Shown here in pieces: positions 1 to 19,630 of a stretch of DNA of 64,000 nt. A model generated the notes under the pieces. It ran no database searches. It worked only from the letters and a program-made list of their open reading frames with translations, and was not told the origin of the DNA. Positions within the stretch are counted from its first letter, which is position 1. Every line of letters starts with the position of its first letter. A program made the translations under genes and the position numbers. Source of the stretch: a virus (Duplodnaviria; Caudoviricetes); IMG/VR virus record IMGVR_UViG_3300027754_000037, one strand, 5' to 3'.

Positions 1-413
1 CCAAGAATCACGCACAGCACGGCGATACGGAGTATCAATACACAATCAAAGGCAGCGGTCCAGAAGCGCATGTAAGTTGCTTTGACATTCGCCGTGATAA
101 TTTTTGTTGGATAGACGGCAGGGATTTGTGTCCCCTTTGGGAGTTCATCAACAAAAATAGCAAATTAATTGCTGATTTTAAGCCATTTAAGTTGGTGCAG
201 TTGCAATACAACCAACAGTTCTTGAATGAAACTACGGCTCAAAATATGCTGAAATCACCCGTGCATCACCTAAAATGCTGGGAAGGCAGGCACGAAGGCT
301 GTGCAAACTGGAACACTTGCGTCCAAGATGTTCGTGTCTTGGTGCAGGCTTTTCCAGAACTTTACTCGCCCGATTTCTCCAAATATGGAATCACCTTAGA
401 ACAAGTGGCCTAA
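1..413 (+). CDS. 5'-truncated hypothetical phage protein
   Basis: The frame of track ORF 126..413 is open back to position 3 (KNHAQHGDTEYQYTIKG...), so the gene starts before the window; it ends at TAA 411-413, ahead of a terminator. Confidence 0.7.
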   Translation, partial: KNHAQHGDTEYQYTIKGSGPEAHVSCFDIRRDNFCWIDGRDLCPLWEFINKNSKLIADFKPFKLVQLQYNQQFLNETTAQNMLKSPVHHLKCWEGRHEGCANWNTCVQDVRVLVQAFPELYSPDFSKYGITLEQVA

Positions 414-440
414 AGTCCGGCAATTTTAGGTCATTTGCTA

Positions 441-490
441 ACCCAGATTGCGCAGCTTAACATATCTTGCTGCGTGGTCTGGGTTTTTTT
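441..490 (+). terminator. Rho-independent terminator
   Basis: Imperfect stem CCCAGA..CGCAGC / GCTGCG..TCTGGG followed by T7. Confidence 0.7.
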
Positions 491-513
491 GTAAAAATCA
501 AATTTCTTTGACT

Positions 514-553
514 TTAATTGTATTTTTGAAACAAAACTTCCTGTAGGACTTTG
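514..553 (+). promoter_or_regulatory. Early-promoter-like motif, copy P1
   Basis: TTAATTGTATTTTTGAAACAAAACTTCCTGTAGGACTTTG, between a terminator and the RBS (AAGGAG) of 620..2194; one of 9 copies. Confidence 0.75.
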
Positions 554-619
554 ACGGTGTGAAAATTTTAAACACCCTGCCCGTATACAGGGTGTAACAT
601 CCCAACAAGGAGCTTTTCT

Positions 620-2194: not shown

Positions 2195-2325
2195 CCTTGG
2201 CATGATCCCGCCGTGGGGAATGTTCGCCCCAAGTCACGGCAACTTGGGGCTGGAGGCAACTTTCAATATTTTCCGTGTAATAGTGATTACTGTGTTGCTA
2301 AAAATCAAATGGAGATGCCATTACC

Positions 2326-2547
2326 ATGATGTACGATTTTCCTCCTGCCTATGTGGTTTACGAAGACCTTAGACAATTTGAGGTCAGCTTTACCATAAAG
2401 AAACCACGCACCATCCGCAGCAAACAGGTGGTGAGTGCTTCCAGTTCGCAGAATGCCCGTGATGTGATTTACGCACAGTATGGGAAGGATAGTGTGACCA
2501 ATATGTCTGTTCGTGAATTGAAGAATAAGGAGAATGCCGATGAATGA
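2326..2547 (+). CDS. hypothetical protein
   Basis: 73-aa ORF, GGAG upstream, co-oriented with neighbours. Confidence 0.55.
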   Translation: MMYDFPPAYVVYEDLRQFEVSFTIKKPRTIRSKQVVSASSSQNARDVIYAQYGKDSVTNMSVRELKNKENADE

Positions 2548-2728
2548 TAGCGAAAAAAGAGTAACTATATTTGCGCTAACATCGTTGAAAGATTCTTTAT
2601 CATCCCGTATTATAGATTATATGATAGGTGATGGAATACCAGGAGTACATGAAAATGATATAAATGGTGTTGCCGATATTATATCTGGTGCTATTTTGGC
2701 AGTTGAAGGGTGCTATTTTGGCAGTTGA
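2540..2728 (+). CDS. hypothetical protein (C-terminus altered by a 22-bp tandem duplication)
   Basis: AAGGAG RBS 7 nt before ATG 2540; exact duplication 2687-2708 / 2709-2730. Confidence 0.55.
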   Translation: MNDSEKRVTIFALTSLKDSLSSRIIDYMIGDGIPGVHENDINGVADIISGAILAVEGCYFGS

Positions 2729-2749
2729 AGGGAAGGATATATAATATGC

Positions 2750-2784
2750 AAAGACCCCCAAGGTGTAGTGCCTTGGGGGTCTTT
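2750..2784. terminator. Bidirectional terminator
   Basis: 14-bp perfect stem AAAGACCCCCAAGG / CCTTGGGGGTCTTT between convergent + ORF and - strand tRNA. Confidence 0.75.
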
Positions 2785-2801
2785 GTGTCTCTTTCGCAAA
2801 A

Positions 2802-2873
2802 AGCGGGTGAAGAGATTTGAACTCTCAACATTCTGCGTGGAAGGCAGACGCTCTACCGTTGAGCTACACCCGC
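2802..2873 (-). tRNA. trnG: tRNA-Gly (anticodon TCC), no encoded CCA
   Basis: Minus strand GCGGGTG TA GCTC AACGGTA GAGC G TCTGC CTTCCAC GCAGA ATGTT GAGAG TTCAAAT CTCTT CACCCGC T: full cloverleaf, U73 discriminator, followed by TTTT rather than CCA. Confidence 0.95.
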
Positions 2874-3035
2874 ATTATCGTTAGGTGGTTTGCCAGTTGG
2901 GTTGAACCAAAGCATCTTGGTTGGCGACATGCCACCTTGGACAGCATTTTCAAGTGCTGTTCTTTGTGGCATTTTGTTGTCGAGTGCTTCAGCAGCATCG
3001 TTGTTAATCTTCTTAATTACTTCGATGTCCCACAT
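2853..3035 (-). CDS. hypothetical protein overlapping tRNA 5' end
   Basis: Strong RBS GAGGAGG before ATG 3035 (MWDIEVIKK...); ATAAATA motif upstream (3062-3068); stop TAG lies in the tRNA D-loop. Confidence 0.55.
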   Translation of the reverse strand: MWDIEVIKKINNDAAEALDNKMPQRTALENAVQGGMSPTKMLWFNPTGKPPNDNAGVAQR

Positions 3036-3084
3036 GAATAACCTCCTCTTCATTAAATTAGTATTTATGTAATTTTTTTTAACT

Positions 3085-3124
3085 TTAATTGTATTTTTGA
3101 CACGAAACTTCCTGTAGTCCTTTG
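3085..3124 (+). promoter_or_regulatory. Early-promoter-like motif, copy P2
   Basis: TTAATTGTATTTTTGACACGAAACTTCCTGTAGTCCTTTG, upstream of GGAGG RBS. Confidence 0.75.
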
Positions 3125-3139
3125 AAGGGAGGTTTTTCA

Positions 3140-3580
3140 ATGATCAAAAACCATGAGATAGGCACGGTTGAAACTCTGAGTGGAAAAATGGTTGTTATTT
3201 CGCACGAAGAGTTCGTGCGATTATGCGATGATCACGGGTTGGATGTCAAGACAGTCTTGACTGAATATGACAATGTACCTCTGAACTTTGGCTATGACAG
3301 CGTGTTTGGAGTAGACGCTGTAAAAACGCTGAATAAGGATGGTAAAGTCTATTCGGCAGCGACTATTGGCATTCAGCCTTGTGAGTTTGTCAGAATGCTC
3401 TACGAGGGCGAGAAATCTTTTCAAGAGTTTCTCGCAGAGCAGCACAAAAACGAAGGGACGATAGTTCCCGGCAGCGCCATATGGCAGAAATCTGCCAAGG
3501 ACTATCACAACTACATTCTAGGTGTAAGTGGCGAAAATCGCCCCAACACCGATCTTGACCTGTTTTTCGCAGGAGCCTGA
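3140..3580 (+). CDS. hypothetical early protein
   Basis: GGAGG RBS, ATG 3140 (MIKNHEIG). Confidence 0.7.
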   Translation: MIKNHEIGTVETLSGKMVVISHEEFVRLCDDHGLDVKTVLTEYDNVPLNFGYDSVFGVDAVKTLNKDGKVYSAATIGIQPCEFVRMLYEGEKSFQEFLAEQHKNEGTIVPGSAIWQKSAKDYHNYILGVSGENRPNTDLDLFFAGA

Positions 3581-3646
3581 GTTCGATTCACGACCATCCC
3601 GGCGTATACCGGGGTGGTCTGTTTGTTTAATCAAAAGGAGCATCCG

Positions 3647-3931
3647 ATGAACCTGAAACAACACCAACTGATTTGGCGCAAGAACTTTCGTGGACCAGTA
3701 CCCTACAAGCGGGGTGAAACCTGCTTTTCAACGGTACGCAGCAAAGTGGCTGAAGGAATTGAATTCTTCATCCTGAATATCCCCAAGGATCATCCAGAAT
3801 TTGAAACTTTGAACGAAGAGTTCAAAGTCATCCACAAAAATGATTGGGACGGCGACTACTTGGTGCCTTGCCAGTTCGTCCAGTTTGCCGAAGTAGCGGT
3901 GACCTCGCAAGGAGGGGAAACAAGTGAGTGA
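3647..3931 (+). CDS. hypothetical early protein
   Basis: AAGGAG RBS preceded by hairpin CCCGG-CGTATA-CCGGG. Confidence 0.7.
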   Translation: MNLKQHQLIWRKNFRGPVPYKRGETCFSTVRSKVAEGIEFFILNIPKDHPEFETLNEEFKVIHKNDWDGDYLVPCQFVQFAEVAVTSQGGETSE

Positions 3932-4142
3932 TAGCATTAAAAGGATCAATATCCTTATGGATGTTTTTCCTGAATACAAGGAAGACCCAAGCGTACTGAT
4001 TGAAGACTTCAAATGTTGGGTGGAGAAAAATAGAGAGGAATTGATCGAAGAAAAAACCGAAAGCATGGTGGATTTGATTTCTTTGAGTGGACAACTTCAA
4101 TCAGTATGTGGCGATGAAGTTGTTAGGGTAATGTTGGGGTAA
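3924..4142 (+). CDS. hypothetical early protein
   Basis: GGAGG RBS, GTG start overlapping the upstream stop. Confidence 0.6.
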   Translation: MSDSIKRINILMDVFPEYKEDPSVLIEDFKCWVEKNREELIEEKTESMVDLISLSGQLQSVCGDEVVRVMLG

Positions 4143-4160
4143 AATAATTCCTAAATATTA

Positions 4161-4199
4161 CAATTGTATTTTTTGAACATAAATTCCTGTAAGACTATG
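4161..4199 (+). promoter_or_regulatory. Early-promoter-like motif, copy P3 (divergent)
   Basis: CAATTGTATTTTTTGAACATAAATTCCTGTAAGACTATG. Confidence 0.6.
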
Positions 4200-4211
4200 G
4201 AGGAACTAAAA

Positions 4212-4604
4212 ATGAAGATACTTCAAGCGTTCGTCTATAGGAACCTACACCAAGCCGGTGTGTGTTATTCAGTAAAGGATCGCAGCACCGGCAAGGTGGC
4301 CATGCACTCCAACAACTTGGTGGTGAGCAGGGCCAACTTCATAGTCCAAAAAGGCGGACAAGCAAAAGTTCGTCAATTGGGTCGAAAACAAGTTCATGCA
4401 GGGGTTGTTGGCGATTTGGTGGTTGACCCCATCGAGTTGGCCAAAGTCCTGCCCGAACTCCAAAGTGCCCCCAAAGCACAATATAACCCCTACCAGAACG
4501 ATACCTTCGTGTCTGAGTCTAACGAACCGCTGACCAAGGCAGACTATGTGCTGCTTACTAGCGAAAATGGCAAGTCGTCTGTCCGTTACATCACAAAGGA
4601 GTAG
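4212..4604 (+). CDS. Conserved phage protein of the VYRNLH...RKxVHA type; candidate Acb4-like cyclic-dinucleotide sponge
   Basis: Motifs FVYRNLH...YSV...GKV..H...F.VQKGGQAKV...RKQVHAGVVG; the assignment to Acb4 rests on recollection of the family and is unverified. Confidence 0.4.
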   Translation: MKILQAFVYRNLHQAGVCYSVKDRSTGKVAMHSNNLVVSRANFIVQKGGQAKVRQLGRKQVHAGVVGDLVVDPIELAKVLPELQSAPKAQYNPYQNDTFVSESNEPLTKADYVLLTSENGKSSVRYITKE

Positions 4605-4608
4605 TTCG

Positions 4609-4890
4609 ATGAGCACCACACTTGAAAAAGAACCAAAAGCCAATCCCGTAAGGGACAAGGTTGTTTTTAATGTACTCAAGGCCTTGGGAACACCTCCCGG
4701 TTACTATCAGACAAAAGCCAGCAATGTCTTCGAGAATCGATGGAGAGTCGATGTATGGGTCACCATTGCCCAATCGATTCTCGGCACCATTGCCCAGTCT
4801 GTAATCACAGACAGTTTCTTTGTGGTTGCCGATGAGAACGGGAAGGTAGTTTCGCCAATAATCACCAATAAGTATGGAGAAAATCGATGA
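4609..4890 (+). CDS. hypothetical protein
   Basis: AAGGAG RBS; NVFENRWRVDVW and ITDSFFV motifs. Confidence 0.7.
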   Translation: MSTTLEKEPKANPVRDKVVFNVLKALGTPPGYYQTKASNVFENRWRVDVWVTIAQSILGTIAQSVITDSFFVVADENGKVVSPIITNKYGENR

Positions 4891-5135
4891 ACAACTACAG
4901 GCATCAGTTGTTATTTGATAACGGTTTTGGAATAAGTATAATTTGCCATAGCTCAAGCTATGGAAATGAAAGTTGCCTGTTTGAGGTTGCTTTGTTGAAG
5001 GAGGGTGGACTTGTTTATCACGAGAATTTTCGGGATGTGCGGGGTTTTTTAGATTTCCACGCCGTTGCCCGGACGGTTGATGAGGTCAAGGCTTATAAAT
5101 CCGACCTCATCGTCCAGAATCATCCTTGTTTTTGA
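4887..5135 (+). CDS. Conserved phage hypothetical (FxNGxGxSxI..SYG..LFEVA type)
   Basis: FDNGFGISIICHSSSYGNESCLFEVALL; ATGA overlap with the upstream gene. Confidence 0.65.
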   Translation: MNNYRHQLLFDNGFGISIICHSSSYGNESCLFEVALLKEGGLVYHENFRDVRGFLDFHAVARTVDEVKAYKSDLIVQNHPCF

Positions 5136-5160
5136 AGTCATTTACTAAGGAGGCGACAAG

Positions 5161-5406
5161 ATGAGCGAACAATATAGAGGTTTTTACTTCATTCACAAAA
5201 CTGAGGTGAAGGACCTCACGAAAGAACAACTTTGGGAGGAGGTCGAGGAGTACGACCGGAGGTGTGAGGTCGCAGCAAGGAACGGCGAGGGAATTAGCTC
5301 GAAGGAGGGGGTGAGGAACCGACTCTGCCGTGCAGAATTGTATCAGCGCACTTGGGGAAATATCCCCTTCGAGCAGGTTCAAAATTTCTTTGAGCCAATT
5401 TCTTAA
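5161..5406 (+). CDS. hypothetical protein
   Basis: AAGGAGG RBS. Confidence 0.7.
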   Translation: MSEQYRGFYFIHKTEVKDLTKEQLWEEVEEYDRRCEVAARNGEGISSKEGVRNRLCRAELYQRTWGNIPFEQVQNFFEPIS

Positions 5407-5426
5407 TTACAACCTAGGAATCAGAA

Positions 5427-5654
5427 ATGAAAGTATCATTAGACAATGGCAATACATGGGTAGAAGTAGAAAATTTAAAGGTTATTCAAAATATTGAAGA
5501 CCCAACTGATTACGAAGATGAACCTTCCGAAGTGGAGTTGCATTTCAATTTCACTTCAGAAGGAGTGGTTACTGATGTTTGGATAAACGATATTTGTCAG
5601 GGTACTTCAAGTGAAGTTTATTTGACTATCGGAGACAATTTGGTCAACCACTAG
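5427..5654 (+). CDS. small acidic hypothetical protein
   Basis: 75-aa D/E-rich ORF, AGGA upstream. Confidence 0.6.
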   Translation: MKVSLDNGNTWVEVENLKVIQNIEDPTDYEDEPSEVELHFNFTSEGVVTDVWINDICQGTSSEVYLTIGDNLVNH

Positions 5655-5746
5655 TTTTTTTGATTGTACAGCCTAATAATTAAACAATCCCGGTGCGGGG
5701 ACAATAGCAATCCAAGGTCGCACCACCTTGGTAGTATGGAGACTAT

Positions 5747-5965
5747 ATGAGCAATCGAGTTGGACGACCCGACAAATTTGCACCAAAGCAAGTGAAACAA
5801 TTGAAGCAGATCGTGTCAATATATGGTCTGCGCAAGGGCCGACAAGTTCTTAATCGACTTGGAATCCAAGTCAGCTTGCCGACTTTGAGCAAATACATCG
5901 GCAGCACTAGCTGTGGGAAACCTCTGGTTCTTAAGCGTGGTCGCCCAGTTAAAGTGGAGGCTTAA
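5747..5965 (+). CDS. small basic, probably DNA-binding (HTH-like) protein
   Basis: VGRP at the N-terminus, helical core VSLPTLSKY, C-terminal KRGRP AT-hook-like motif; GGAG RBS. Confidence 0.45.
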   Translation: MSNRVGRPDKFAPKQVKQLKQIVSIYGLRKGRQVLNRLGIQVSLPTLSKYIGSTSCGKPLVLKRGRPVKVEA

Positions 5966-5966
5966 T

Positions 5967-6257
5967 ATGATCGAAGGAACTATAAACTATCCGCCCTACA
6001 CTATTGCTTGGGCCAACACACAAGGGCGTATATTTCGCTCCTTTCCATTCCAAACTCCAGAAATGGCATTGGCTTGGGCAAAGGAAAAAGCAACAACCCA
6101 CCTCAATATCCACAACCAACCGGTTTATATGATCACCCCTGATCACCAGTTCAAACCTGTCACCGCCCAACAGTTGGGGATTCCAAAACCAAGCAACGAA
6201 CACGAGGACGATTGGAATGACGAAGATGAGGATGAGATGATGGAAACTGATATATAA
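5967..6257 (+). CDS. hypothetical protein with acidic tail
   Basis: GGAGG RBS; C-terminal EHEDDWNDEDEDEMME. Confidence 0.65.
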   Translation: MIEGTINYPPYTIAWANTQGRIFRSFPFQTPEMALAWAKEKATTHLNIHNQPVYMITPDHQFKPVTAQQLGIPKPSNEHEDDWNDEDEDEMMETDI

Positions 6258-6360
6258 CTCTACCATCGAAAGGATTCGATATGGCCATATTTTCAGTCAC
6301 ATTCGGCATTGTCGTCATGATTGCAATCGTGGTCAATAACGCTTGCATGAAGGACGAAAT

Positions 6361-6585
6361 ATGAAACCACTCCTCGCTGCACTCTGTCTAGCCATGACAG
6401 GGTGCAGATGCTGCCAACACCACGAAAAACCCAAATACAAGCACAAGCTTGTTTCGGGACTTGAATCGGGCACCAAACTGTACCCCGAAGGGTTTGGGCC
6501 AAACCAATACACCAAAAACCACGCACCAAGCCCTTTTGAGTGCTTGGATATTAAAGGCAAACTAGAGTACATCATTGAGTGGTAG
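6361..6585 (+). CDS. putative small lipoprotein
   Basis: MKPLLAALCLAMTG-C resembles a signal peptidase II lipobox; AAGGA RBS. Confidence 0.45.
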   Translation: MKPLLAALCLAMTGCRCCQHHEKPKYKHKLVSGLESGTKLYPEGFGPNQYTKNHAPSPFECLDIKGKLEYIIEW

Positions 6586-6587
6586 AT

Positions 6588-6631
6588 AGTATTCTACCCT
6601 GTAGAGTATTCTACCCTGTAGAGTATTCTAC
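6588..6631. repeat. 17-bp tandem repeat x2.6 containing the dyad GTAGA-GTAT-TCTAC
   Basis: AGTATTCTACCCTGTAG at 6588 and 6605, partial copy at 6622. Confidence 0.85.
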
Positions 6632-6674
6632 AGCAAACCATATCTCCACTACACATCCCAACAAGGAGCCTCAA

Positions 6675-7082
6675 ATGCTCAATATTCGCTCATATATTGA
6701 TCCAGAAGTCCAAATGAGGGTGCTGCAATGTGAAGACAAATTCATCGCAGAAACGGCCCTAGCGCAGCAAACTCTGACAGGCTATCAAACCATCAATAGT
6801 GAGCCCCAAGACACGGCAGAACTGGCAAAAATCTACCTGAAAGCCAAGCTGGTGGCCCTCAAGGAGCGTGAGGAGAAGTTCATCGAAAATCCAGCCGAAC
6901 TTATGGAACACTTGTGCTTCAGCCACGACTGGACTTTCAAATTCAGCGATGGCCATTCCCAATGGGAGGCTGGCGACCGCACTCGCAAATTTATGGAAAT
7001 GATCGTAAGGGAAATCGGACAACCTGCCCGTGAAATCTGGAAAAAATACGCACCTAGTGAAATCTTCCGGTGCCACATCTAA
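6675..7082 (+). CDS. hypothetical early protein
   Basis: CATCCCAACAAGGAGC leader, shared with the gene at 620; ATG 6675. Confidence 0.7.
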   Translation: MLNIRSYIDPEVQMRVLQCEDKFIAETALAQQTLTGYQTINSEPQDTAELAKIYLKAKLVALKEREEKFIENPAELMEHLCFSHDWTFKFSDGHSQWEAGDRTRKFMEMIVREIGQPAREIWKKYAPSEIFRCHI

Positions 7083-7276
7083 CACCATTTAACACTACAG
7101 GAACAATCACATGAGCATTCCCGTAGGTCAAGATGTTCACAACCAAAACCCATCACAGGAAAGGTGGTTGGACCCGTCCACTAAAATCGTCAAAGACTCT
7201 GAAATTGACTGGAGTTTAGTCGAATGTTGCGGTTAGATAACTGCAAGCTTCAGAAAAATTCCAGAAAATAATTAAA

Positions 7277-7316
7277 TCAATTGTATTTTTGACACGAAAC
7301 TTCCTGTACCGCTTTG
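7277..7316 (+). promoter_or_regulatory. Early-promoter-like motif, copy P4
   Basis: TCAATTGTATTTTTGACACGAAACTTCCTGTACCGCTTTG. Confidence 0.75.
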
Positions 7317-7346
7317 TACAGTTCAACTCAACAAGGAGCATAAATC

Positions 7347-7682
7347 ATGGGACTGGACAGCATATGGATTGGCGAAAACAACGAGCGGGCTTTTGTGAAC
7401 GCCGAACTCAACCTCTGCGGAGGCATGTTTTCAGACAGCGGCAACTCAAGCTTCAGAGGCAAGGTATACGACCTCCTTGTTTCAACAGCAACAGGGCAAA
7501 CCCTCTACTCAGAGGATATACCCAACAATCTAGTTGTGCAGATGGCCGAAAAACTGGAAAACTGCACAATTTCCTCTGCACAGGTCATTGATCCTAACAT
7601 CGTGGCACAAGAGCTTGAAGACCTCAAGCTTATGTTCAAGCTCCATGCCGAGGCCGGTCACAAGCTGGTCGGCTGGTGGTAA
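7347..7682 (+). CDS. Conserved phage hypothetical (MGLD-start type)
   Basis: AAGGAG RBS; MGLD...FRG..Y...GWW motifs. Confidence 0.7.
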   Translation: MGLDSIWIGENNERAFVNAELNLCGGMFSDSGNSSFRGKVYDLLVSTATGQTLYSEDIPNNLVVQMAEKLENCTISSAQVIDPNIVAQELEDLKLMFKLHAEAGHKLVGWW

Positions 7683-7752
7683 GGGGCTTGCTTGCCATTA
7701 GACAACTGCAAACCTCAGAGAAATTCTAGAAAATAATTGAATTTAATTGAAA

Positions 7753-7791
7753 TTAATTGTATTTTTGAAACGGAACTTCCGTATCACTTTG
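7753..7791 (+). promoter_or_regulatory. Early-promoter-like motif, copy P5
   Basis: TTAATTGTATTTTTGAAACGGAACTTCCGTATCACTTTG, with dyad ACGGAA-C-TTCCGT. Confidence 0.75.
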
Positions 7792-7818
7792 TAGAGAGTT
7801 AAACAAAAGGAGATTCAA

Positions 7819-8160
7819 ATGACCCAGATCAAGAACCTGACACCTCACGCAATTGTTTTGGTTCAAGGGGAAACCCAAGTTACCATCCAGCCGAGTGGGA
7901 CCGTTGCCCGTGTATCTACGGTTGCGGGGAGCAAGCTTGAAAGTTCCCTGCCTGTAGAATTGTGGTCAGCCAGCACTTTGGGGGAGGTTGTGGACCTGCC
8001 TTCTCCCGAAGAAGGTGTGATTTTGCTGGTGTCCAGCCTTGTGGCTGGTGCAGCGAAGAGGGAGGATGTTTACAGTCCCGGCACCGGCCCCAACGATGGG
8101 GCTGTGCGGAACGAAAAAGGCCATGTTGTGGGTGTCACCCGCCTCGTGCGAAGCACTTAA
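7819..8160 (+). CDS. NLTPH-family protein, copy 1; candidate Crn4-like ring nuclease
   Basis: IKNLTPHAI...PSGTVARV...LLVSSLV...VRNEKGHVVGV; family link recalled, not verified. Confidence 0.45.
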   Translation: MTQIKNLTPHAIVLVQGETQVTIQPSGTVARVSTVAGSKLESSLPVELWSASTLGEVVDLPSPEEGVILLVSSLVAGAAKREDVYSPGTGPNDGAVRNEKGHVVGVTRLVRST

Positions 8161-8284
8161 TTAAGGGGGCGACTCATGGTCAAAGAAATCGCCACGCTGG
8201 TCCTGATGCTCTTCACGGGCACAGGACCAAGTCCTAGTCTACATTACCCAAGCGAATCTGGGTCAATCGCTAGTCTCTAATTAC

Positions 8285-8320
8285 AGCCAGAGAGGGCCAC
8301 AGCCTTCTCTGGCTTTTTTT
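8285..8320 (+). terminator. Rho-independent terminator
   Basis: AGCCAGAGAGG-loop-CCTTCTCTGGCT followed by a T-run. Confidence 0.75.
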
Positions 8321-8366
8321 GCAATTTTTAGGACACTTTACCCACCCCAAACAAAAGGAGATTCAA

Positions 8367-9038
8367 ATGAACCAGATCAAGAACCTGACACCTCATGCGA
8401 TAACTTTGGTGCAAGGAGACACCCAAGTCACCATCCCGCCAAGCGGGACCGTGGCCCGTGTATCTACTTTTCCCGGCAGCTTGCTCGAAAGCTCCCTGCC
8501 TGTCGAAGTGTGGTCCCCTATCACTTTTGGGGAAGTGGTGGATCTGCCTCCCCCCGAAGAAGGGGTAATTTTACTGGTGTCCCACCTTGTGGCTAGTGCA
8601 GCCAAGAGGGCGGATGTTTACAGTCCCGCTTTAGCGTTTGCCCACTCCCGCCCCAACGATGGGACTGTGCGGGGGGAAAAAGGAGAGGTCGTGGGTGTCA
8701 CCCGCCTCGTGCGAAGTAGCCAACAGCAACAACCCAAGGAGAATGGAATGAATAAGCTAGAAAACAGAGTGTTTAAGTATTCCCTCATCCAAAGAGGAAT
8801 TAGTCTCCCACTAACCTCAAGTGAGTGGGAGAATTTGAGGAGAAGCTATGAAAGTGAACACCCGTATAGGGTTGATACGAGTTCCAGAACTTGGGGCTCC
8901 GGGGATTATGAGGAGACAACCCTTATTAGTAACATTTTCATTGATACTATTGATGGGGTTGAGTTAATTGCGACTCTCAGGTGTTTTTCAAAGGAAAAAA
9001 TAGAGGATAGGATAAATAGGCAAGAGGCAGGATTTTAA
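8367..9038 (+). CDS. NLTPH-family protein, copy 2, fused in frame to a second ORF (internal RBS and ATG at 8748)
   Basis: First ~120 aa closely match 7819..8160; no stop; AAGGAG-N6-ATG at 8736-8750. Confidence 0.65.
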   Translation: MNQIKNLTPHAITLVQGDTQVTIPPSGTVARVSTFPGSLLESSLPVEVWSPITFGEVVDLPPPEEGVILLVSHLVASAAKRADVYSPALAFAHSRPNDGTVRGEKGEVVGVTRLVRSSQQQQPKENGMNKLENRVFKYSLIQRGISLPLTSSEWENLRRSYESEHPYRVDTSSRTWGSGDYEETTLISNIFIDTIDGVELIATLRCFSKEKIEDRINRQEAGF

Positions 9039-9042
9039 TTAC

Positions 9043-9123
9043 CAAAATATTCCTGAATTAATTGTATTTTTGAAACGAAACTTCCGTATCACTATGAAGG
9101 GAGCCACTAGAGAGCAACCTTCA
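9043..9123 (+). repeat. Promoter (P6) + stem-loop module A (5'-shortened)
   Basis: AAATATTCCTGAATTAATTGTATTTTTGAAACGAAACTTCCGTATCACTA-TGAAGG..GAGCCACTAGAGAGCAA..CCTTCA. Confidence 0.85.
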
Positions 9124-9149
9124 GGGATACCAAAGGAACAACAAAGAAA

Positions 9150-9368
9150 ATGAAAATGTTAGAAAAAACTGTGTCAGATACTGTGTCAGATACTGCTTAT
9201 TGGGCAGTATCTGAGTATCGAGGATACAAGAGCGTTCAAGAAATTGCTGAGATTGCAGAGTCCTGTGTGGGCGATGAGGTCTACGGCAAAACCTTTTCAG
9301 AGGAAGAGGCAAAAAAAGCCGGGGATATGGCTTTTGAACTTGTGTTTGAAATACACCCAGATTGGTAA
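9150..9368 (+). CDS. small acidic hypothetical protein
   Basis: Single gene between module A and a terminator; 12-bp in-frame duplication at 9168-9191. Confidence 0.6.
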   Translation: MKMLEKTVSDTVSDTAYWAVSEYRGYKSVQEIAEIAESCVGDEVYGKTFSEEEAKKAGDMAFELVFEIHPDW

Positions 9369-9391
9369 GTTGTTTTGTGTCCTCAGCTAGA

Positions 9392-9432
9392 GACTGACAG
9401 AGGAATAAACTCCTCTGTCAGTCTTTTTTTTT
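9392..9432 (+). terminator. Rho-independent terminator
   Basis: GACTGACAGAGGA / TCCTCTGTCAGTC followed by T9. Confidence 0.85.
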
Positions 9433-9436
9433 GCAT

Positions 9437-9553
9437 TCTTTAGGCTAATTGTACCTACAGGATAAATGTCAAATAAATTACTGAATTTAATTGTATTTTT
9501 CAAACGAAAGTTCCGTATCACTATAGAAGGAAGCCACTAGAGAGCAACCTTCA
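9437..9553 (+). repeat. Promoter (P7) + stem-loop module B
   Basis: TCTTTAGGCTAATTGTACCTACAGGATAAATGTCAAA...TTAATTGTATTTTTCAAACGAAAGTTCCGTATCACTATAGAAGG...CCTTCA; near-identical to module D. Confidence 0.85.
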
Positions 9554-9575
9554 GGGATACCTTGGAGATTCAGAA

Positions 9576-9995
9576 ATGACCACCGCTACCCTTGAGATGA
9601 TTCAAGACGGCCTGAGTGGGCAAAAGGTCAGCGGGTATCACTACGAGCCGGTCCAGCCCGCAAATTGGGCTGACCTGCCCCAAGAGGAATACGGGTACGA
9701 GGCAACGGCGATGTACGAGTTCCCAATCGCCGTGGGCTTCCACGATGATGGGTACGACCGCTGGACCGACGACGATGGCACCTCTCACGCCAGTTGGGAT
9801 GACTTCCCCTCTGATGTCCTCACGGGGCTGTACAAAAGCCGCAAGGAAGCTGAGGAGGACTTGGCGTGGGACATCCACAACACAGGCGCAAAAAACCTGT
9901 GGCTCATCGAGGGGTATCGCATGAGCGGGTGGCAACTGCGTACCTATGGTGCGCCACCAAACTGGCGCAGCGTCCCACACCGCTTGGTGAAGTGA
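9576..9995 (+). CDS. acidic hypothetical early protein
   Basis: GGAG RBS; GC-rich codons; single gene between module B and a terminator. Confidence 0.7.
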   Translation: MTTATLEMIQDGLSGQKVSGYHYEPVQPANWADLPQEEYGYEATAMYEFPIAVGFHDDGYDRWTDDDGTSHASWDDFPSDVLTGLYKSRKEAEEDLAWDIHNTGAKNLWLIEGYRMSGWQLRTYGAPPNWRSVPHRLVK

Positions 9996-10000
9996 TCCAA

Positions 10001-10027
10001 AGGGGGCTTCGGCCCCCTCTTTTTTTT
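10001..10027 (+). terminator. Rho-independent terminator (C-UUCG-G loop)
   Basis: AGGGGGC-TTCG-GCCCCCT followed by a T-run. Confidence 0.85.
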
Positions 10028-10066
10028 GGCAATTTTTTGGGATGTAGGTACAATTTGTCTAAAACT

Positions 10067-10181
10067 TCTTTAGATAACTTGTAACTACAGGATAAATGTC
10101 AAAAATATTCCTGAATTAATTGTATTTTTGAAACGGAACTTCCGTATCACTATGAAGGGAGCCAACAGAGTGCAACCTTCA
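10067..10181 (+). repeat. Promoter (P8) + stem-loop module C
   Basis: CTACAGGATAAATGTCAAAAATATTCCTGAATTAATTGTATTTTTGAAACGGAACTTCCGTATCACTATGAAGGGAGCCAACAGAGTGCAACCTTCA. Confidence 0.85.
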
Positions 10182-10205
10182 AACGGCTAAAAGGAAACAA
10201 CAACG

Positions 10206-10412
10206 ATGGCTAGTCAGAACAACCGTTTCGGTATCGGTGGCGTGATTAAGTGTCTGGCGTGTGGGAAGAAGACACGGCAGACCGGCGACAACGATGGCAC
10301 GGAGTTGTGCCATCGCTGCTTCCACGAGTGCCTCATGGAGAACGCACACGGCGATGGACACCATGAAGGTGCCTCGCATCCGAAGTGCCACATCTGCAAG
10401 GCTGTGGCGTGA
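10206..10412 (+). CDS. small Zn-finger-like protein
   Basis: CLAC, CHRC..EC, HGDGHH and HPKCHIC motifs; AAGGA RBS. Confidence 0.6.
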   Translation: MASQNNRFGIGGVIKCLACGKKTRQTGDNDGTELCHRCFHECLMENAHGDGHHEGASHPKCHICKAVA

Positions 10413-10414
10413 TT

Positions 10415-10448
10415 AAAGAGGAATGCCAGATGGCATTCCTCTTTTTTT
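10415..10448 (+). terminator. Rho-independent terminator
   Basis: AAGAGGAATGCCA / TGGCATTCCTCTT followed by a T-run. Confidence 0.85.
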
Positions 10449-10463
10449 GTATTTTTTTTGTAC

Positions 10464-10578
10464 TCTTTAGGCTAATTGTACCTACAGGATAAATGTCAAA
10501 AATATTCCTGAATTAATTGTATTTTTGAAACGGAACTTCCGTATAACTATGAAGGGAGCCAACAGAGAGCAACCTTCA
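10464..10578 (+). repeat. Promoter (P9) + stem-loop module D
   Basis: Same ~115-bp module as B and C. Confidence 0.85.
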
Positions 10579-10600
10579 GGTCACTCGCAGGAGCAACCAC

Positions 10601-10807
10601 ATGACCCACAACAACATTCCCGGCCTCGCTGAGTTCCGGGCAGGGGTGTCCGCTGCAATGCGGGCAAGCGAGAGCGGCTTGCAACTGCAAGCGGCAATCG
10701 CCCGCAAGGGTAACGACCTTGCGGCTCTGGAGAAATACCTCGCAACCGCCAACCAGAAAGGTTGGGTAAAGGCGGCAGCGTTCATCGAAAGAATCATGAT
10801 GGCATGA
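10601..10807 (+). CDS. small Ala-rich helical protein
   Basis: AGGAG RBS directly after module D. Confidence 0.65.
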   Translation: MTHNNIPGLAEFRAGVSAAMRASESGLQLQAAIARKGNDLAALEKYLATANQKGWVKAAAFIERIMMA

Positions 10808-10851
10808 ACAATCGGGGCTTCAGAAGCGAAGAAGAATAAAGGAGACAACCC

Positions 10852-11172
10852 ATGTATACTTTCAAGAAGGCCCAAGAGTTTCTCGGCAAGCGTCAGCAAA
10901 AGAAGCTGGCGCACAACACCACCATCCGTATCGAAGACGGTCTGATCAAGATCAAGTACCACGCCACCGACATCGTCACCATCACGCATGACGATGTCTA
11001 CACCCTGAACAATGGTGGTTGGTCAACCCCAACCACCAAGACCCGCATAAACAAGTTCAGCCCTGCCCGAATCTACCAGCAGGACTTCTGCTGGTACATC
11101 AAGGCGGGCGACAAGTCCCTGCCTTTCAACAACGGCTCTAAAGTAGATGTCAATGGTATCATACTACCTTGA
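10852..11172 (+). CDS. Conserved phage hypothetical (LNxGGWxTxTTKxRIN type)
   Basis: YHATDIV...TLNNGGWSTPTTKTRINKF; AAGGAG RBS. Confidence 0.7.
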   Translation: MYTFKKAQEFLGKRQQKKLAHNTTIRIEDGLIKIKYHATDIVTITHDDVYTLNNGGWSTPTTKTRINKFSPARIYQQDFCWYIKAGDKSLPFNNGSKVDVNGIILP

Positions 11173-11197
11173 CCCGCACCTACTGAGATTCTCCCAG

Positions 11198-11229
11198 CCC
11201 GCCACCCAGAAAGTGGCGGGCCTTTTTTT
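11198..11229 (+). terminator. Terminator closing the early region
   Basis: CCCGCCAC / GTGGCGGG followed by a T-run. Confidence 0.8.
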
Positions 11230-11598
11230 GTTTCATAAACAATACAGATAAAAGTAGTTTACTATTATTGTTTGTCTGGAAAATATATAAGATAAAAATA
11301 GTTTAAATATATTTTTACAAAAAAAATAATTAAACAATTAATAATGAAAAAGTTTTAGACTATGGGATACCCCCCTACCCCCCTACCCGCTATGACTGTC
11401 TTCCTTTTGATTCACTCCTTAGCCCTTTTTTGGCCACGGGGATTGTTGCAAATTTTCGTCCCCAACAATTTATGAATTATCCCATATGGGCTGGAAAGTC
11501 AATCGGGGTGGCATCCTAAAAAAATGCGCCGGGAGGTTTTTTGATTTTGGAGGGAGGGTTTTTGGGTGGTTTGGGAGGCGAAAAGAAGATTGTTTGTT

Positions 11599-11831
11599 CC
11601 TAGAGCAATAGGGGAAGCTCCTGAAGCAATAGGGGAAGCTCCTAGAGCAATAGGGGAAGCTCCTGAAGCAATAGGGGAAGCTCCTGAAGCAATAGGGGAA
11701 GCTCCTGAAGCAATGGGGGAAGCTCCTGAAGCAATGGGGGAAGCTCCTGAAGCAATGGGGGGAAGCTCCTGAAGCAATGGGGGGAAGCTCCTGAAGCAAT
11801 AGGGGAAGCTCCTGAATCAATGGGGGAAGCT
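11599..11831. repeat. Tandem array of 11 units of 21 (22) bp, consensus CCTGAAGCAATRGGGGAAGCT
   Basis: Counted directly: nine 21-bp and two 22-bp units; no spacers. Confidence 0.95.
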
Positions 11832-11833
11832 CA

Positions 11834-12700
11834 TCACTTTGGCAGGAAGACTCTTTTCATATGATCTAAATCTGTTTCAAAAGGGTTTTTGCTTGATCCC
11901 GGTATGTCCTTGATAACCTTTTCGAGACCTCCCTTGGAATCGACATTACGGAAGAACTCCAAATCCTTATCTGCTCTGCTTGTGCTTGGATAAACCGATC
12001 TGGCATCTATATTTCCAAATTGGTCCTTGGAGCTCCTGTTATAAGTTGGATCGTATCCAGAAGTTGTTGGCCTTAGAGCATCAAATGCTTGTCCTATCAA
12101 ATCATTAGCTTTTTCGCTGGAATCCATTAAGAATTTACCTGCTTTTTTGATTGGATCTGTCAATCCAAAAAGTTCTAAAGCTTTCTTTACCAGCCATATA
12201 GCTGCATCTGCTGAAGATTTGACAACTGCTTGGAAAGCTGGCCAAAGGTATTCGGTGCCTATCCATTTGAATAATGTTCCTATCTTGTCAGCAAGTGGTG
12301 CCAAGAAAGGGAAAAGAGACCTGATTGCGTCAAAGCGGAAACCAAGGTATATGATGGCAGCAACGAATGTGATCAATCCCACTTTCTTGATGATACTCCA
12401 GATCATGGAGAGTGGTCCGCTGGGTTTCTCGATTTTAGCCTCGTCTTCCTTTGTAATTTTGGCGTTTTTGGCTTGAGGAGACTTGGAGAGCATCTTCATG
12501 GCCAAACTTGGCAGGAAGAAGAATTCGTTTAATTTCTGGCATTCAATATCAACTATCATTCTTTCCTGAATGCTCATGCTGTTGTAGAGGTTATTGAGAA
12601 CTTTTTCCTCCAAGTCTTTGGATTCTTGGATGGACAATCCAGATTTTTTCAGGATGGACCTTTCTATTTCTTTGCAGCGATATTGATCAAGATTTAGCAT
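11834..12700 (-). CDS. hypothetical membrane-associated protein
   Basis: AAGGA RBS before ATG 12700; hydrophobic segment VGLITFVAAIIYLGF. Confidence 0.6.
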   Translation of the reverse strand: MLNLDQYRCKEIERSILKKSGLSIQESKDLEEKVLNNLYNSMSIQERMIVDIECQKLNEFFFLPSLAMKMLSKSPQAKNAKITKEDEAKIEKPSGPLSMIWSIIKKVGLITFVAAIIYLGFRFDAIRSLFPFLAPLADKIGTLFKWIGTEYLWPAFQAVVKSSADAAIWLVKKALELFGLTDPIKKAGKFLMDSSEKANDLIGQAFDALRPTTSGYDPTYNRSSKDQFGNIDARSVYPSTSRADKDLEFFRNVDSKGGLEKVIKDIPGSSKNPFETDLDHMKRVFLPK

Positions 12701-12779
12701 GGTTATATCCTTTTCTTTATATATCGGATGGAAATAAAAAAGGTTGCAATTTAAATTAATTGTTGTTAAAAAGTGAATT

Positions 12780-13184
12780 ATGCAAGAGCCTCTTACTTTA
12801 CATGAAGAAATTGTCAAGAAGTTGCGCAATCGTTCAGAGATTGCTTTCAAGGATTATTTCTGTGGTATGGTTAGGAATAGTGGTACAGAGTGCATCGATG
12901 GATATTTGATTTATTTCCCTGTTGGTGACAGATTTCTTTGCAAAGACGATGTGGACAATGTTCCGGGTAGTGGGGCTAGTGGTTTTGTGGGAGGTCACGC
13001 CGAAGAGTTTACGGTATTTCATGACTGTAGTGATGTGGCTATTGCTTACAAGAGGTGTCGAGAATCTTATAATAGAGCGGGCATGATCCATCCTAGGGGT
13101 TACTGTTGCAGAGTGGACTGGCATATCAACAAGGGTTTCAAGATATTAAATTTCAGCGCATTTGGGGTGGATAATGGGATGTGA
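12780..13184 (+). CDS. hypothetical protein
   Basis: 134-aa ORF divergent from 11834..12700. Confidence 0.5.
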   Translation: MQEPLTLHEEIVKKLRNRSEIAFKDYFCGMVRNSGTECIDGYLIYFPVGDRFLCKDDVDNVPGSGASGFVGGHAEEFTVFHDCSDVAIAYKRCRESYNRAGMIHPRGYCCRVDWHINKGFKILNFSAFGVDNGM

Positions 13185-17491: not shown

Positions 17492-19630
17492 TTAGAACAG
17501 CCTTTGGTTGCAGACTGTGATGGCGGGCACATAAGCGCCGTTTACAGCCGAGCAGATGCCCAGAGACTGTTGGATATTGGAGCATTGGTTATAGAAGAAC
17601 TTAGTCTTGGCGCATGTGCAGGAGTTTGTGCCAATTTTGCAAACCTTTCCAACGCTTGTTCCGCAACCCTTGTTGGAGCAGCTTTTGATGACTTCTGGGC
17701 TTACGAAGCTCTTGACGAAAGAGTTGGCAATCAGCTTCATGTAGGTTTCGGTGACTTCGGCCTCATTTTCTTTGGCGAAGACTAGAACATACAGTTCTTT
17801 TCTACCGCTGAGTCCTGTCAGAACATGAGTATCGCCATAACCGTCATCATCAACAGGATCTGGAACATTTTGGGTGATTCCAGCTTCGATGCCGTCAACG
17901 ATGATGAGTTGATTGACTGTGGGATCGCCACCTGCGGAGCTAGACTTGTAGAAAGCTGCGAATTCAAAGCCATTGACCTTAAATTCAAAGCTTCCTATCA
18001 AGCATTCTCCATTGCCATCCTGCTCGGTGCCGCCGTAGATGTTGAATTCATTAATTGTCATGTTGTTTGCTGCGAGGACAAACAGTCCGGGGAACATGTT
18101 GGTGAAGTAGCGACTGCCGTTACCGAAGTAGTCGTTGGCGTTTTTGATTCTACCATCGCTGGGCATATAGTAGTAGTTGTACTTGTCGCTAGCATAATCA
18201 TAGTACATGTAGCCAACGCTCGAATCGTCACACACGATTACATTGCTGTGAGTAAAAGGAATGCAATTTTCTTCATCCAAGCTGCCGCCATTAATTGTTG
18301 CATAAGTTTGAGTATAGTTGGTGTTGAAGTACATTCCAGAATCCCAGACATTACAGCCGTCAGCTACACCGACACGGTAGAAATTGTAGCGTATGGGTTG
18401 ACCAATCAGTCCACCGTTTGCGGTCAGTTTCATGCAACCATAAGAAATACTGTTGTTGCCGAAGTTGAAGTCGGTGGTGAGGACCTTACCACCATATTGG
18501 GTGAAGTATCCAGCCACAAAGACTGTGTCGTCAGACTTTACAGTCAGGGCCATAACACCGTCATTTGCTCCGATGTTTGATCCGAAGCTAACATCACGGC
18601 TTCCATCGCTATTCAGACGGACAAGTCTATTGCAGAGCTTTCCGTCCAGCGTGACGAAAAAACCACCGACAAGAATCTTGCCTGATGATTGCAGCGCAAC
18701 TGCTTGTACTCCCGCCCACCAGTCGCCATCAAATCCAGTTGTACCAAGGTTAAATGTTGCATCAAAGGTTCCATCATCTTCAAGTCTGCAAAGGCCGTTA
18801 TCGATATTTATAGTTTTGTAGGTACTCCATTCGCCACCAACAACTACTTTGCCGTCTTTTTGGATGGCGATACTGTAGACATCATTATCAAAGCCCGCTC
18901 CAACTGAGAAGCCGCCATCTTCTGTGCCGTTTGCATTTATTTTACAGATTCTGTTAGTAAAACTTCCACCAATAAAATACTCACCATCAGATGTTGGTGT
19001 GATGCACCATACACTATCGTAACCTACGGCATCTACATTGTCGGCAAAGCCTTCATCAAGAACTCCCAATCCATCTAATTTTGCAAGACCGGGGCTGCTA
19101 TATCCATCAAACTCGGCAAACTCACCTCCGACGATCACGGAGTCATCTATATCAACCGTAAGGGCATGGACATAATCATCGAAGCCACCGTTGTCGAAAT
19201 CTGTGTCATGGGTTCCATTTGTGGTCAGTCTAGCGATGTAATAAACAGATGTGGAATTAAGGTCTACAAAATTACCGCCAACGATTACTTTTCCCGAGGA
19301 CTGTAGGGCTAGAGCATAGATGGTGCCGTAGAATTTTGCAGATGTGTTGAAAGTGGTATCTGCGGTTCCATCAGCGTTGAATCTTTTGACTACTGAGTAA
19401 TTATCTTCTTCGCCGCCGTCGAAGAGACCTGAGTCACCAGCAACAAGGACCTTGCCATCGCTTTGAACTGTGATGCAGGTTGCGAATCCGATGTAGTCGA
19501 AATCAACTACAGTTCCCGGCATTTCAAAGTAATCGGGTTCATCTGTGAAATTGAAGCGACTGGACACTAAGCCTGCCACCTGCACACTTGAGGCGCTGGC
19601 TCCCAAGACAACTTGTTCTAACTGAGTCAT
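17492..19630 (-). CDS. Delta-60-repeat beta-propeller protein with Cys-rich C-terminus (probable virion protein)
   Basis: Repeats QSDGKVLVAG, QSSGKVIVGG, QKDGKVVVGG, QSSGKILVGG and RL..DG..D.xF; GGAG RBS; TATAAATA upstream. Confidence 0.8.
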   Translation of the reverse strand: MTQLEQVVLGASASSVQVAGLVSSRFNFTDEPDYFEMPGTVVDFDYIGFATCITVQSDGKVLVAGDSGLFDGGEEDNYSVVKRFNADGTADTTFNTSAKFYGTIYALALQSSGKVIVGGNFVDLNSTSVYYIARLTTNGTHDTDFDNGGFDDYVHALTVDIDDSVIVGGEFAEFDGYSSPGLAKLDGLGVLDEGFADNVDAVGYDSVWCITPTSDGEYFIGGSFTNRICKINANGTEDGGFSVGAGFDNDVYSIAIQKDGKVVVGGEWSTYKTINIDNGLCRLEDDGTFDATFNLGTTGFDGDWWAGVQAVALQSSGKILVGGFFVTLDGKLCNRLVRLNSDGSRDVSFGSNIGANDGVMALTVKSDDTVFVAGYFTQYGGKVLTTDFNFGNNSISYGCMKLTANGGLIGQPIRYNFYRVGVADGCNVWDSGMYFNTNYTQTYATINGGSLDEENCIPFTHSNVIVCDDSSVGYMYYDYASDKYNYYYMPSDGRIKNANDYFGNGSRYFTNMFPGLFVLAANNMTINEFNIYGGTEQDGNGECLIGSFEFKVNGFEFAAFYKSSSAGGDPTVNQLIIVDGIEAGITQNVPDPVDDDGYGDTHVLTGLSGRKELYVLVFAKENEAEVTETYMKLIANSFVKSFVSPEVIKSCSNKGCGTSVGKVCKIGTNSCTCAKTKFFYNQCSNIQQSLGICSAVNGAYVPAITVCNQRLF

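Follow-up and report, generated by a model that had tools for sequence, protein, structure and literature searches.

Promoter early stem-loop (PeSL) elements of T4-type phages are composites of ca. 100 bp in which an early promoter resembling the sigma-70 consensus is combined with an AT-rich tract and a terminator stem-loop. They cluster in hyperplastic regions, mostly directly ahead of ORFans, and flank the genes by which close relatives differ (Arbiol et al., 2010; PMC2839356), with further precedent given by Comeau et al., 2014 (PMC4122927). Excised mini-circles that hold one gene and one chimeric motif are a further mark of them. The locus described here lies on a virus record of the Caudoviricetes (IMG/VR record IMGVR_UViG_3300027754_000037; 144,066 bp, 41% GC), of which genome positions 64001–128000 were analysed as one stretch of 64,000 nucleotides, hereafter the window; positions are those of the window unless marked as genome positions. 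Towards its left end, up to position 11229, stands an array of small genes set apart by repeated regulatory modules and predicted terminators, and its setting is best explained as the right-hand end of a hyperplastic early-gene region in a large uncultured freshwater phage. Comparison with relatives supports a PeSL-type array and not an integron, differing from the described PeSLs in promoter type, leader hairpin, mix of junctions and phage clade. Its genes have probably been shuffled in the PeSL manner, as autonomous units whose module repeats act as portable homology for general recombination, accompanied by illegitimate joins.

Repeat search of the window recovered three overlapping families. 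A 115-nt family has its reference copy at 10067–10181 and further copies at 10464–10578 (94% identity) and 9009–9123 (77%), an 84-nt family occupies 9425–9508, 10055–10138 and 10452–10535, and a 36-nt family holding a hairpin starts at 9096, 9526, 10154 and 10551. As motifs, a 30-nt promoter-like core is matched five times in the window (none in 100 shuffles), the hairpin four times and the upstream tract three times (likewise none in shuffles). Across the 144-kb record the core family, TTGTATTTTTGAAACGRAACTTCC, counts 21 copies, nine of them inside the window, all on the plus strand and all within 26 kb (genome 48,674–74,517); each stands behind a terminator or stop codon, 15–90 nt before an ATG led by a Shine-Dalgarno (SD) sequence. 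An upstream tract (UP1) with ATTGTACCTACAGG precedes six full core copies and several partial ones, a second upstream subfamily (UP2) precedes three cores (7281, 7757 and one copy at genome 61456), and the hairpin follows 5 of the 21 copies. The upstream region is AT-rich, and the modules have a GC content of 36–37% in a genome of 41%. The first-pass annotation, made from the sequence of the window, had proposed four such modules (at 9043, 9437, 10067 and 10464) in a fourfold succession of terminator, module and gene, a second upstream subfamily ahead of two cores, and self-contained expression units. The four modules and the second subfamily are borne out by the repeat families, and modules and terminators are found at each unit, in keeping with self-contained units of putative promoter, leader, gene and terminator. 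The parts said to be shared are not uniform: core and hairpin are present in all four modules, but that at 9044, already called shortened, has no upstream tract and the hairpin at 9526 is a variant with one loop change and its outermost pair lost. Similarly, terminators do close each unit, but none stands ahead of the module at 9044, where the preceding 223-amino-acid (aa) gene ends at 9038, and the array starts earlier than stated, at about 7227.

The core consists of a contiguous conserved block of ca. 45 nt; TA-N3-C-T-W-T-G comes next, at a spacing that varies by 1 nt, and many copies of the core contain a 13-nt palindrome. We infer that it is a promoter. In three copies (genome 60289, window 3089 and window 4164) the SD comes directly after CTWTG, therefore transcription must start at or before this motif, which places the hairpin, beginning at the G of CTATG, in the 5' untranslated region (5'UTR); the start itself would lie close to the G of CTWTG. 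The upstream tract might hold a T4-type late promoter; it contains ATAAAT, whereas the motif enriched before long open reading frames (ORFs) is ATAAATA or TATATAA. The only good sigma-70-like site of the array (10026–10054; TTGGCA-17-TACAAT, 10/12) is created by an inverted upstream-tract motif; in the normal copies of the tract TACAAT is on the minus strand.

The hairpin folds alike in all copies tested, into a 6-bp stem and a 17-nt loop that holds a small inner helix, with energies including flanks of −10 to −17 kcal/mol and z values of −0.9 to −3.6. Eighteen copies, drawn from seven genomes or contigs, all have the GAAGG/CCTTC stem core, and 7 of the 17 loop positions vary among them; in one relative (type C, below) the hairpin is unchanged, loop included, where the promoter core has diverged. 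Search of Rfam with the hairpin gave only sub-threshold chance matches. The hairpin may stabilise or regulate the mRNA. Translation as a leader peptide (ATG AAG GGA...) was considered and rejected, the ATG being lost at 9521, the end of the frame differing between copies and an SD being absent.

Relatives were drawn from other lake metagenomes by exact-protein and homologue look-ups, and their flanks are 80–95% identical. Beside the arrangement of the window (type A) they show five further configurations (B to F). Type B is represented by L012 (ENA), L013 (JGI) and L014 (Logan), three independent assemblies that are 100% identical over the whole array; type E by L022 and L026, its left part being confirmed by L023; type F by L027 and L028; type C by the fragment L015; and type D by the fragments L016 and L017. 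Denoted by protein length in aa, with Crn4 for a ring-nuclease-like gene and Zn for a zinc-ribbon-like one (both described further below), array A reads Crn4 (113), Crn4-fusion (223), 72, 139, Zn (68) and 68+106. Array B reads 140, Zn, 79, 94 and 63+106, array E reads Crn4, Zn, 81, 63 and 62 with a split 106, and array F reads Crn4 (115), Zn, 81, 148 and onwards. Array C forms a single operon, 79-80-59-106, without internal promoters. Of the cassette genes, the Zn gene alone is common to A, B, E and F.

Whole cassettes have been gained, lost or replaced between these relatives, and several of the joints can be read at nucleotide level. In type B a 30-nt remnant, the start of the Crn4 gene, still follows the orthologous promoter with a damaged SD, and the joint to the 140-aa gene falls at the hairpin's 3' foot. 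The 68-aa gene in the last unit of A is chimeric, its first ca. 15 codons coming from the 79/80-aa family and its body from the 63-aa family, from which it follows that A lost two cassettes still present in B by a join ca. 40 nt inside two ORFs. A stretch of 1.7 kb in A has no counterpart in E and F; its left end lies immediately ahead of the SD that serves the 223-aa gene, its right end within the upstream tract of the Zn module. Modules also come and go in their own right: two units present in B and E, one of 70 nt with the promoter only and one of 106 nt with terminator and promoter, are cleanly absent in A, and relative to B the 72 nt that hold the upstream tract of the Zn module (10027–10098) form an indel. 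Terminator T1 and the module that follows it come after the 72-aa gene in A and, in B, after a 94-aa gene unrelated to it (9391–9556 matches L012 11656–11822 at 88.8%), and recur at genome 51155. The module orthologous to that at 7692–7818 would drive different genes in B, E and F. Downstream of the 63-aa gene, E has a 117-nt duplicate (99%) that takes in the final ca. 35 nt of the Zn gene, the Zn terminator and the beginning of the upstream tract; it interrupts an operon found whole in B. An unrelated 148-aa gene of F has a Zn-type leader fused to it at the start codon, and three gene families unrelated to one another include members preceded by the leader that ends in ATGACC. The junctions are heterogeneous, falling inside ORF starts, 5'UTRs, the upstream tract and the T-run of a terminator.

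The modules carry a record of their own. Neighbouring modules within one genome are 98% alike (A5–A6, E2–E3 and E3–E4), compared with 90–94% for modules at the same position in different genomes (label-permutation p 0.012). All hairpins of A and F read GGGAGCC and all those of B and E GGGGGCC, though E and F are 95% identical overall, and three hairpin copies of E share a private AAT variant. Such likeness within genomes is the pattern that gene conversion, or a recent spread of copies through the array, leaves behind.

One unit was also found in a more distant lineage. L030 is a 119.7-kb JGI contig of which 20 kb (1–20246; 60.8% GC) were examined; its early proteins are 27–57% identical to those of A, B, E and F, and those matching A keep their order, on the opposite strand. 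The A-type core is absent from these 20 kb. L030 has a motif of its own, ca. 24 copies of GAGACGAATG with an upstream part GGAAAAGTTTACGG, placed ahead of genes on both strands and often followed by its own small hairpin, GTGGC...GCCAC. At L030 9950–10276, 327 nt are 99.4% identical to F and comprise hairpin, leader, SD, 81-aa ORF and terminator stem. The 5' end of this stretch coincides exactly with the first hairpin base, the 3' end falls in the T-run of the terminator, and a copy of the L030 motif stands ahead of the whole. As regards the direction of transfer, the GC content of the 81-aa ORF fits L030, and the hairpin is multi-copy only in the A–F group. The best explanation of this sequence match is that a hairpin-to-terminator unit can move between distantly related phages with different promoters, and a near-identical unit in lineages of 41% and 61% GC points to a possible route of spread for small accessory genes, including those of Crn4 type. 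L030 also contains long arrays of 23–24-nt tandem repeats at 24–320 and 7275–7810.

Taken as PeSL-like shuffling, these data would describe an early region built from autonomous transcription units, each bounded by a composite module that runs from the terminator of the preceding gene through the AT-rich upstream tract to a phage-specific promoter of ca. 45 nt. One subfamily would add a leader with the conserved stem-loop, followed by the SD and a sequence often common up to the first codons (ATG ACC). Modules of this kind would give each small cargo gene strong expression of its own and insulation from its neighbours, and because they are near-identical repeats they would also supply portable homology. 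General recombination between modules, together with illegitimate joins nearby, could then delete, duplicate, replace and import cassettes and homogenise the modules, presumably by general and not dedicated machinery.

For a count of breakpoints, the module was defined as −100 to +110 nt around each core, which makes up 14–18% of the early region. Between A and B, 15 of 43 indel edges fell in modules (7.6 expected, p 0.005) and between B and E 12 of 28 (4.9 expected, p 0.0015), p values that, like those for the other pairs below, are optimistic, as the two edges of one gap are not independent. All differences within the array involve modules, region-wide only about half of the indels do, and in the 5 kb to the right of the array there are only two gaps, while the early region as a whole is plastic. 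Modules are therefore frequent but not sole sites of rearrangement. A number of results weigh against PeSL-like shuffling as set out above. The enrichment of edges is about two-fold and not significant in every pair, with 12 of 56 for A–E over a longer span (8.3 expected, p 0.12) and 5 of 27 for E–F (3.7 expected, p 0.31). Counted as whole indels, events are not enriched at modules (observed against expected, A–B 7/12 and 6.0, A–E 5/12 and 5.4, B–E 4/8 and 3.9), and over longer spans 6 of 17 indels in A–E and 2 of 8 in E–F touch a module. Several junctions fall within coding sequence and resemble illegitimate more than homologous joins. No compensatory stem change occurs across the 18 hairpin copies, the stem never varying. 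A scan for the sigma-70 consensus called no module, the best hexamer pairs having, in our reading, wrong spacing or missing key −10 bases. Searches for sigma-70 and for multi-subunit and single-subunit RNA polymerases, which like those for recombinases and reverse transcriptase covered the 144-kb fragment, ca. 33% of the genome, returned nothing or a sub-threshold match only; the control search with PF00940 was also blank, which makes that search uninformative. Assembly adds to the reservations: the right halves of arrays E and F each come from a single metagenome assembly, and the ENA scaffolds contain 100-N gaps, one of them between two promoter copies. The L030 insertion comes from one assembly and may be an assembly chimera, which would need two precise joins in a functional context. 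Apparent indels at L012:9130–9229, L022:8629–8728 and L027:453–552 are 100-N scaffold gaps, not events.

A plainer account would hold that the repeats are strong promoters and terminators kept alike by selection, with no role in recombination, and that random illegitimate indels are simply tolerated, some of them landing by chance close to one of the numerous modules. It draws on the share of indels among A, B, E and F that miss modules (about half), on the lack of enrichment at gap level, on the junctions inside ORFs or 5'UTRs, and on further gene indels away from modules together with one translocated gene in the early region. Function alone, however, does not predict the likeness of modules within a genome or the genome-specific variants, modules are themselves clean indels and one was copied along with a gene remnant, and the replacements between B and E have both edges in modules in both genomes; an explanation by selection alone is for these reasons unlikely. 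The core might also be read as a cis element of another kind (an operator array, or a replication or packaging signal), with transcription starting elsewhere, as it has no sigma-70 hexamer match and its palindrome, seen in many copies, is of the sort found in operators. That would leave the position of the cores without a reason, since all are co-directional with the genes, behind strong terminators and at a short distance from an SD and ATG, no other promoter candidates were called in the scan between terminators and genes, and in L030 the corresponding positions ahead of genes are occupied by another repeated motif. We give this possibility hardly any weight.

Movement by a dedicated system, in which a hairpin-recognising recombinase or the copying of mRNA transfers a cassette from hairpin to terminator, would suit the extent of the L030 unit, which approximates one transcript, as well as the B deletion that ends at the hairpin 3' foot, the hairpin kept with its loop in type C despite a diverged promoter, and a replacement (B4/E4) that begins at the CTWTG motif. 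Against it stand the other junctions, which fall at many places, the terminator T1, which travels with the downstream module and not with the gene, and the cassette ends, at both of which no common core sequence was seen. Moreover, neither a tyrosine or serine recombinase (PF00589, PF00239) nor a reverse transcriptase was found in the 144-kb fragment, ca. 33% of the genome. Dedicated mobility as an account of the array is accordingly very improbable. The related proposal for the exchangeable unit itself, bounded by the first hairpin base and the T-run and moved between phage lineages with different promoter families by hairpin-directed recombination or mRNA copying, is quite doubtful; if true, the hairpin would act both as leader and as the signal for movement in a phage 'cassette commons' of GC-rich cargo, for example anti-defence genes. 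PeSL-like shuffling by general recombination remains the preferred reading, and the features of the array are collected in the table.

Features of the array (window positions; cOA, cyclic oligoadenylate)
Feature	Position	Strand	Basis or remark
UP2 tract and core 7281–7304	7227–7322	+	would drive 111-aa gene 7347–7682
UP2 tract, core 7757–7780, 5'UTR with SD	7692–7818	+	repeat search
113-aa Crn4b-like ring nuclease (candidate anti-CRISPR / anti-cOA signalling)	7819–8160	+	profile, model
Intrinsic terminator, 13 pairs and T-run	8285–8320	+	terminator scan
223-aa protein, without promoter core of its own	8367–9038	+	repeat search
Short module: core 9062–9085, hairpin 9095–9123	9044–9123	+	without upstream tract
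72-aa ORF, no known function, GC 42%	9150–9368	+	absent from relatives B, E, F
Terminator T1	9389–9432	+	terminator scan
Full module: UP1 9439–9475, core 9491–9514, hairpin variant 9526–9553	9437–9553	+	repeat and motif scans
139-aa ORFan, GC 59%	9576–9995	+	in B (82% aa identity), absent in E, F
Intrinsic terminator	10000–10027	+	terminator scan
Inverted partial UP1 motif copy	10043–10063	−	inverted repeat search
Full module: UP1, core 10120–10143, hairpin 10153–10181	10067–10181	+	repeat and motif scans
68-aa Cys/His-rich zinc-ribbon-like protein (Zn), GC 58%	10206–10412	+	no known function
Intrinsic terminator	10415–10448	+	terminator scan
Full module: UP1, core 10517–10540, hairpin 10550–10578, shared leader ending ATGACC	10464–10578	+	repeat and motif scans
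68-aa chimeric ORF	10601–10807	+	no known function
106-aa Kyano_Gp96-family protein, second gene of last unit	10852–11172	+	no known function
Intrinsic terminator, closes array	11197–11229	+	terminator scan

The cargo genes are mostly without a Pfam or PHROG function. Cargo ORFs have a GC content of 56–59%, and of 58–74% at third codon positions, and a largely foreign, GC-rich origin is the best explanation; exceptions with native-like composition are the 72-aa ORF and, in the 223-aa protein, the C-terminal part. The 113-aa protein matches the Crn4b profile of the PDB (E 7.7e-12), and its structure model (predicted local distance difference test score, pLDDT, 96) superposes on 9r7b and 9sma with template modelling (TM) scores of 0.76–0.78 and probability 1.0. 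The residues that matter in the Crn4 fold are a Thr and His near the N-terminus and a C-terminal Arg, and phage Crn4b has been proposed as an anti-CRISPR protein (PMC12830947). Correspondingly, T8 and H10 are invariant and R108 nearly invariant among 35 homologues. A Crn4 homologue, P0011 (65% identical), is encoded on contigs of 160–186 kb. The 223-aa gene is a tandem copy of the Crn4-like gene from the 5'UTR onward (85% over 280 nt), in which the Crn4 part (8367–8720) is fused in frame to a low-GC C-terminal part. By profile and model, the 113-aa protein and the N-terminal half of the 223-aa protein belong to the Crn4 ring-nuclease family, and the tandem enzymes are candidate anti-CRISPR (type III) or anti-cOA factors. 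The anti-defence cargo envisaged by the first-pass annotation therefore finds predicted support in these two neighbouring cassettes, but the genes within 9043–11229 are without known function.

The 144-kb record, to which its source assigns a completeness of ca. 33% and the class provirus, is probably a fragment of a very large phage; a near-identical JGI contig measures 239 kb, and the nearest phage record, LR756511.1, is an uncultured phage of 595 kb. The fragment holds a match to the T4-type baseplate wedge (phrog_219) and a Kyano_Gp96 domain, and most of its structural proteins are without a family match. RecA and CsrA searches of it gave nothing or a sub-threshold match only. The array found no match by blastn among phage records, and the 41-kb matching part of LR756511.1 has neither a core-type motif nor another frequent 14-mer. 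Scanning viral and metagenome contigs with the promoter core returned only nine matches, all single chance ones inside genes, and the hairpin had no match in viral and genome contigs. Searches for related loci with the 524-aa protein of the early region and with the 79-aa family found none, and exact-protein look-up of the 81-aa protein of relative E gave no record. Contig joints in Logan (four DNA runs, window 1–13000) were rejected as evidence of rearrangement, as their sides measure only 27–39 nt and they are explained by module copies outside the stretch; Logan contigs break at repeated modules and are consequently uninformative on order, circles or absence. Two metatranscriptome runs contain 5–12% of the sampled words, which gives no evidence of expression.

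Several further features of the early region were recorded. The 75-aa gene at 5427–5654, between the 81-aa and 72-aa genes, has a homologue (80 aa, 81% nt identity; L012 712–954) 5 kb further left in B, E and F, directly ahead of the terminator and promoter that belong to the 524-aa gene, which amounts to a translocation within the early region. In E, a 323-nt AT-rich insertion (L022 12273–12595) carrying a 55-aa ORF splits the Kyano_Gp96-like gene into two ORFs; its ends are 46-nt direct repeats, each with an SD and ATG, and the C-terminal half of the gene thereby gains a new start. The Zn cassette of F (L027 ca. 19210–19360) has ca. 150 nt extra between stop codon and terminator, including GGTTCGATTCC, which resembles a tRNA T-arm. 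To the right of the array, 11604–11832 is a 21-nt tandem repeat of 10.8 copies that encodes the heptad AIGEAPE in one frame, where relatives have an ORF of 394–431 aa (L012 12843–14138, L013 3854–5038, L022 13117–14382); it seems to be a collapsed or truncated repeat-protein gene. A tRNA-Gly (TCC) on the minus strand at 2802–2873, antisense to early genes, attracts contigs of many organisms and produces a depth spike.

Set beside known systems, the array comes closest to PeSLs, and here the earlier comparison was apt (PMC2839356). In both, terminator/promoter composites of ca. 100 nt occur in many copies in a hyperplastic early region ahead of ORFans, close relatives differ by insertion, deletion and replacement of genes, which in the present array involve the motifs throughout but region-wide do so for only about half of the indels, and the motifs bring expression signals of their own, here promoter-like cores and predicted terminators. 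Gene order and content differ between the window and its relatives, without the identical order that would have spoken for a static locus, and several breakpoints lie within modules or at their edges, as had been anticipated. The PeSL idea, until now a matter of cultured T4-type coliphages and vibriophages, would thereby extend to an uncultured freshwater clade with a promoter type other than sigma-70, and gene remnants, a chimeric gene, module duplication and homogenised modules offer footprints of shuffling in natural populations at nucleotide level. The likeness has limits. The putative promoter here is without a sigma-70 consensus match and conserved over a contiguous ca. 45 nt, the subfamily is defined by a stem-loop that is separate from the terminator and placed further downstream, in the putative 5'UTR, the homology often reaches through the SD to the first codons, and many joins are illegitimate and leave remnants. 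The phage is also uncultured, much larger and from freshwater, with T4 kinship that seems only partial.

The comparison with integrons, also made by the first-pass annotation, fares less well. An array of small, unrelated, exchangeable genes separated by structured repeats does recall one, as does the promoterless unit of L030 behind a resident promoter. Integrons, however, have an IntI-type tyrosine recombinase beside promoterless cassettes that each end in an attC site. Here a promoter-like core and a terminator belong to each unit, neither an attC-type 3' site nor a fixed crossover point is present, junctions vary and leave gene remnants, and about half of the early-region indels lie off the modules. 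No recombinase had been seen earlier in the window, and in the 144-kb fragment, ca. 33% of the genome, no integrase or other tyrosine or serine type was found. Morons of lambdoid phages, as reportedly described by Hendrix and colleagues, are autonomous insertions of promoter, gene and terminator. The present units resemble them in being self-contained and in having a composition unlike the genome (cargo 56–59% against 41% GC), and differ in that the regulatory parts are native, repeated and AT-rich, with only the ORF foreign, that the units stand in tandem and that the region is lytic-early, not prophage-expressed. No repeated module family of the present kind is known to us from the ORFanage or hyperplastic regions of T4-like cyanophages, which like the array are clusters of small novel genes with rapid gain and loss (PMC4503421).

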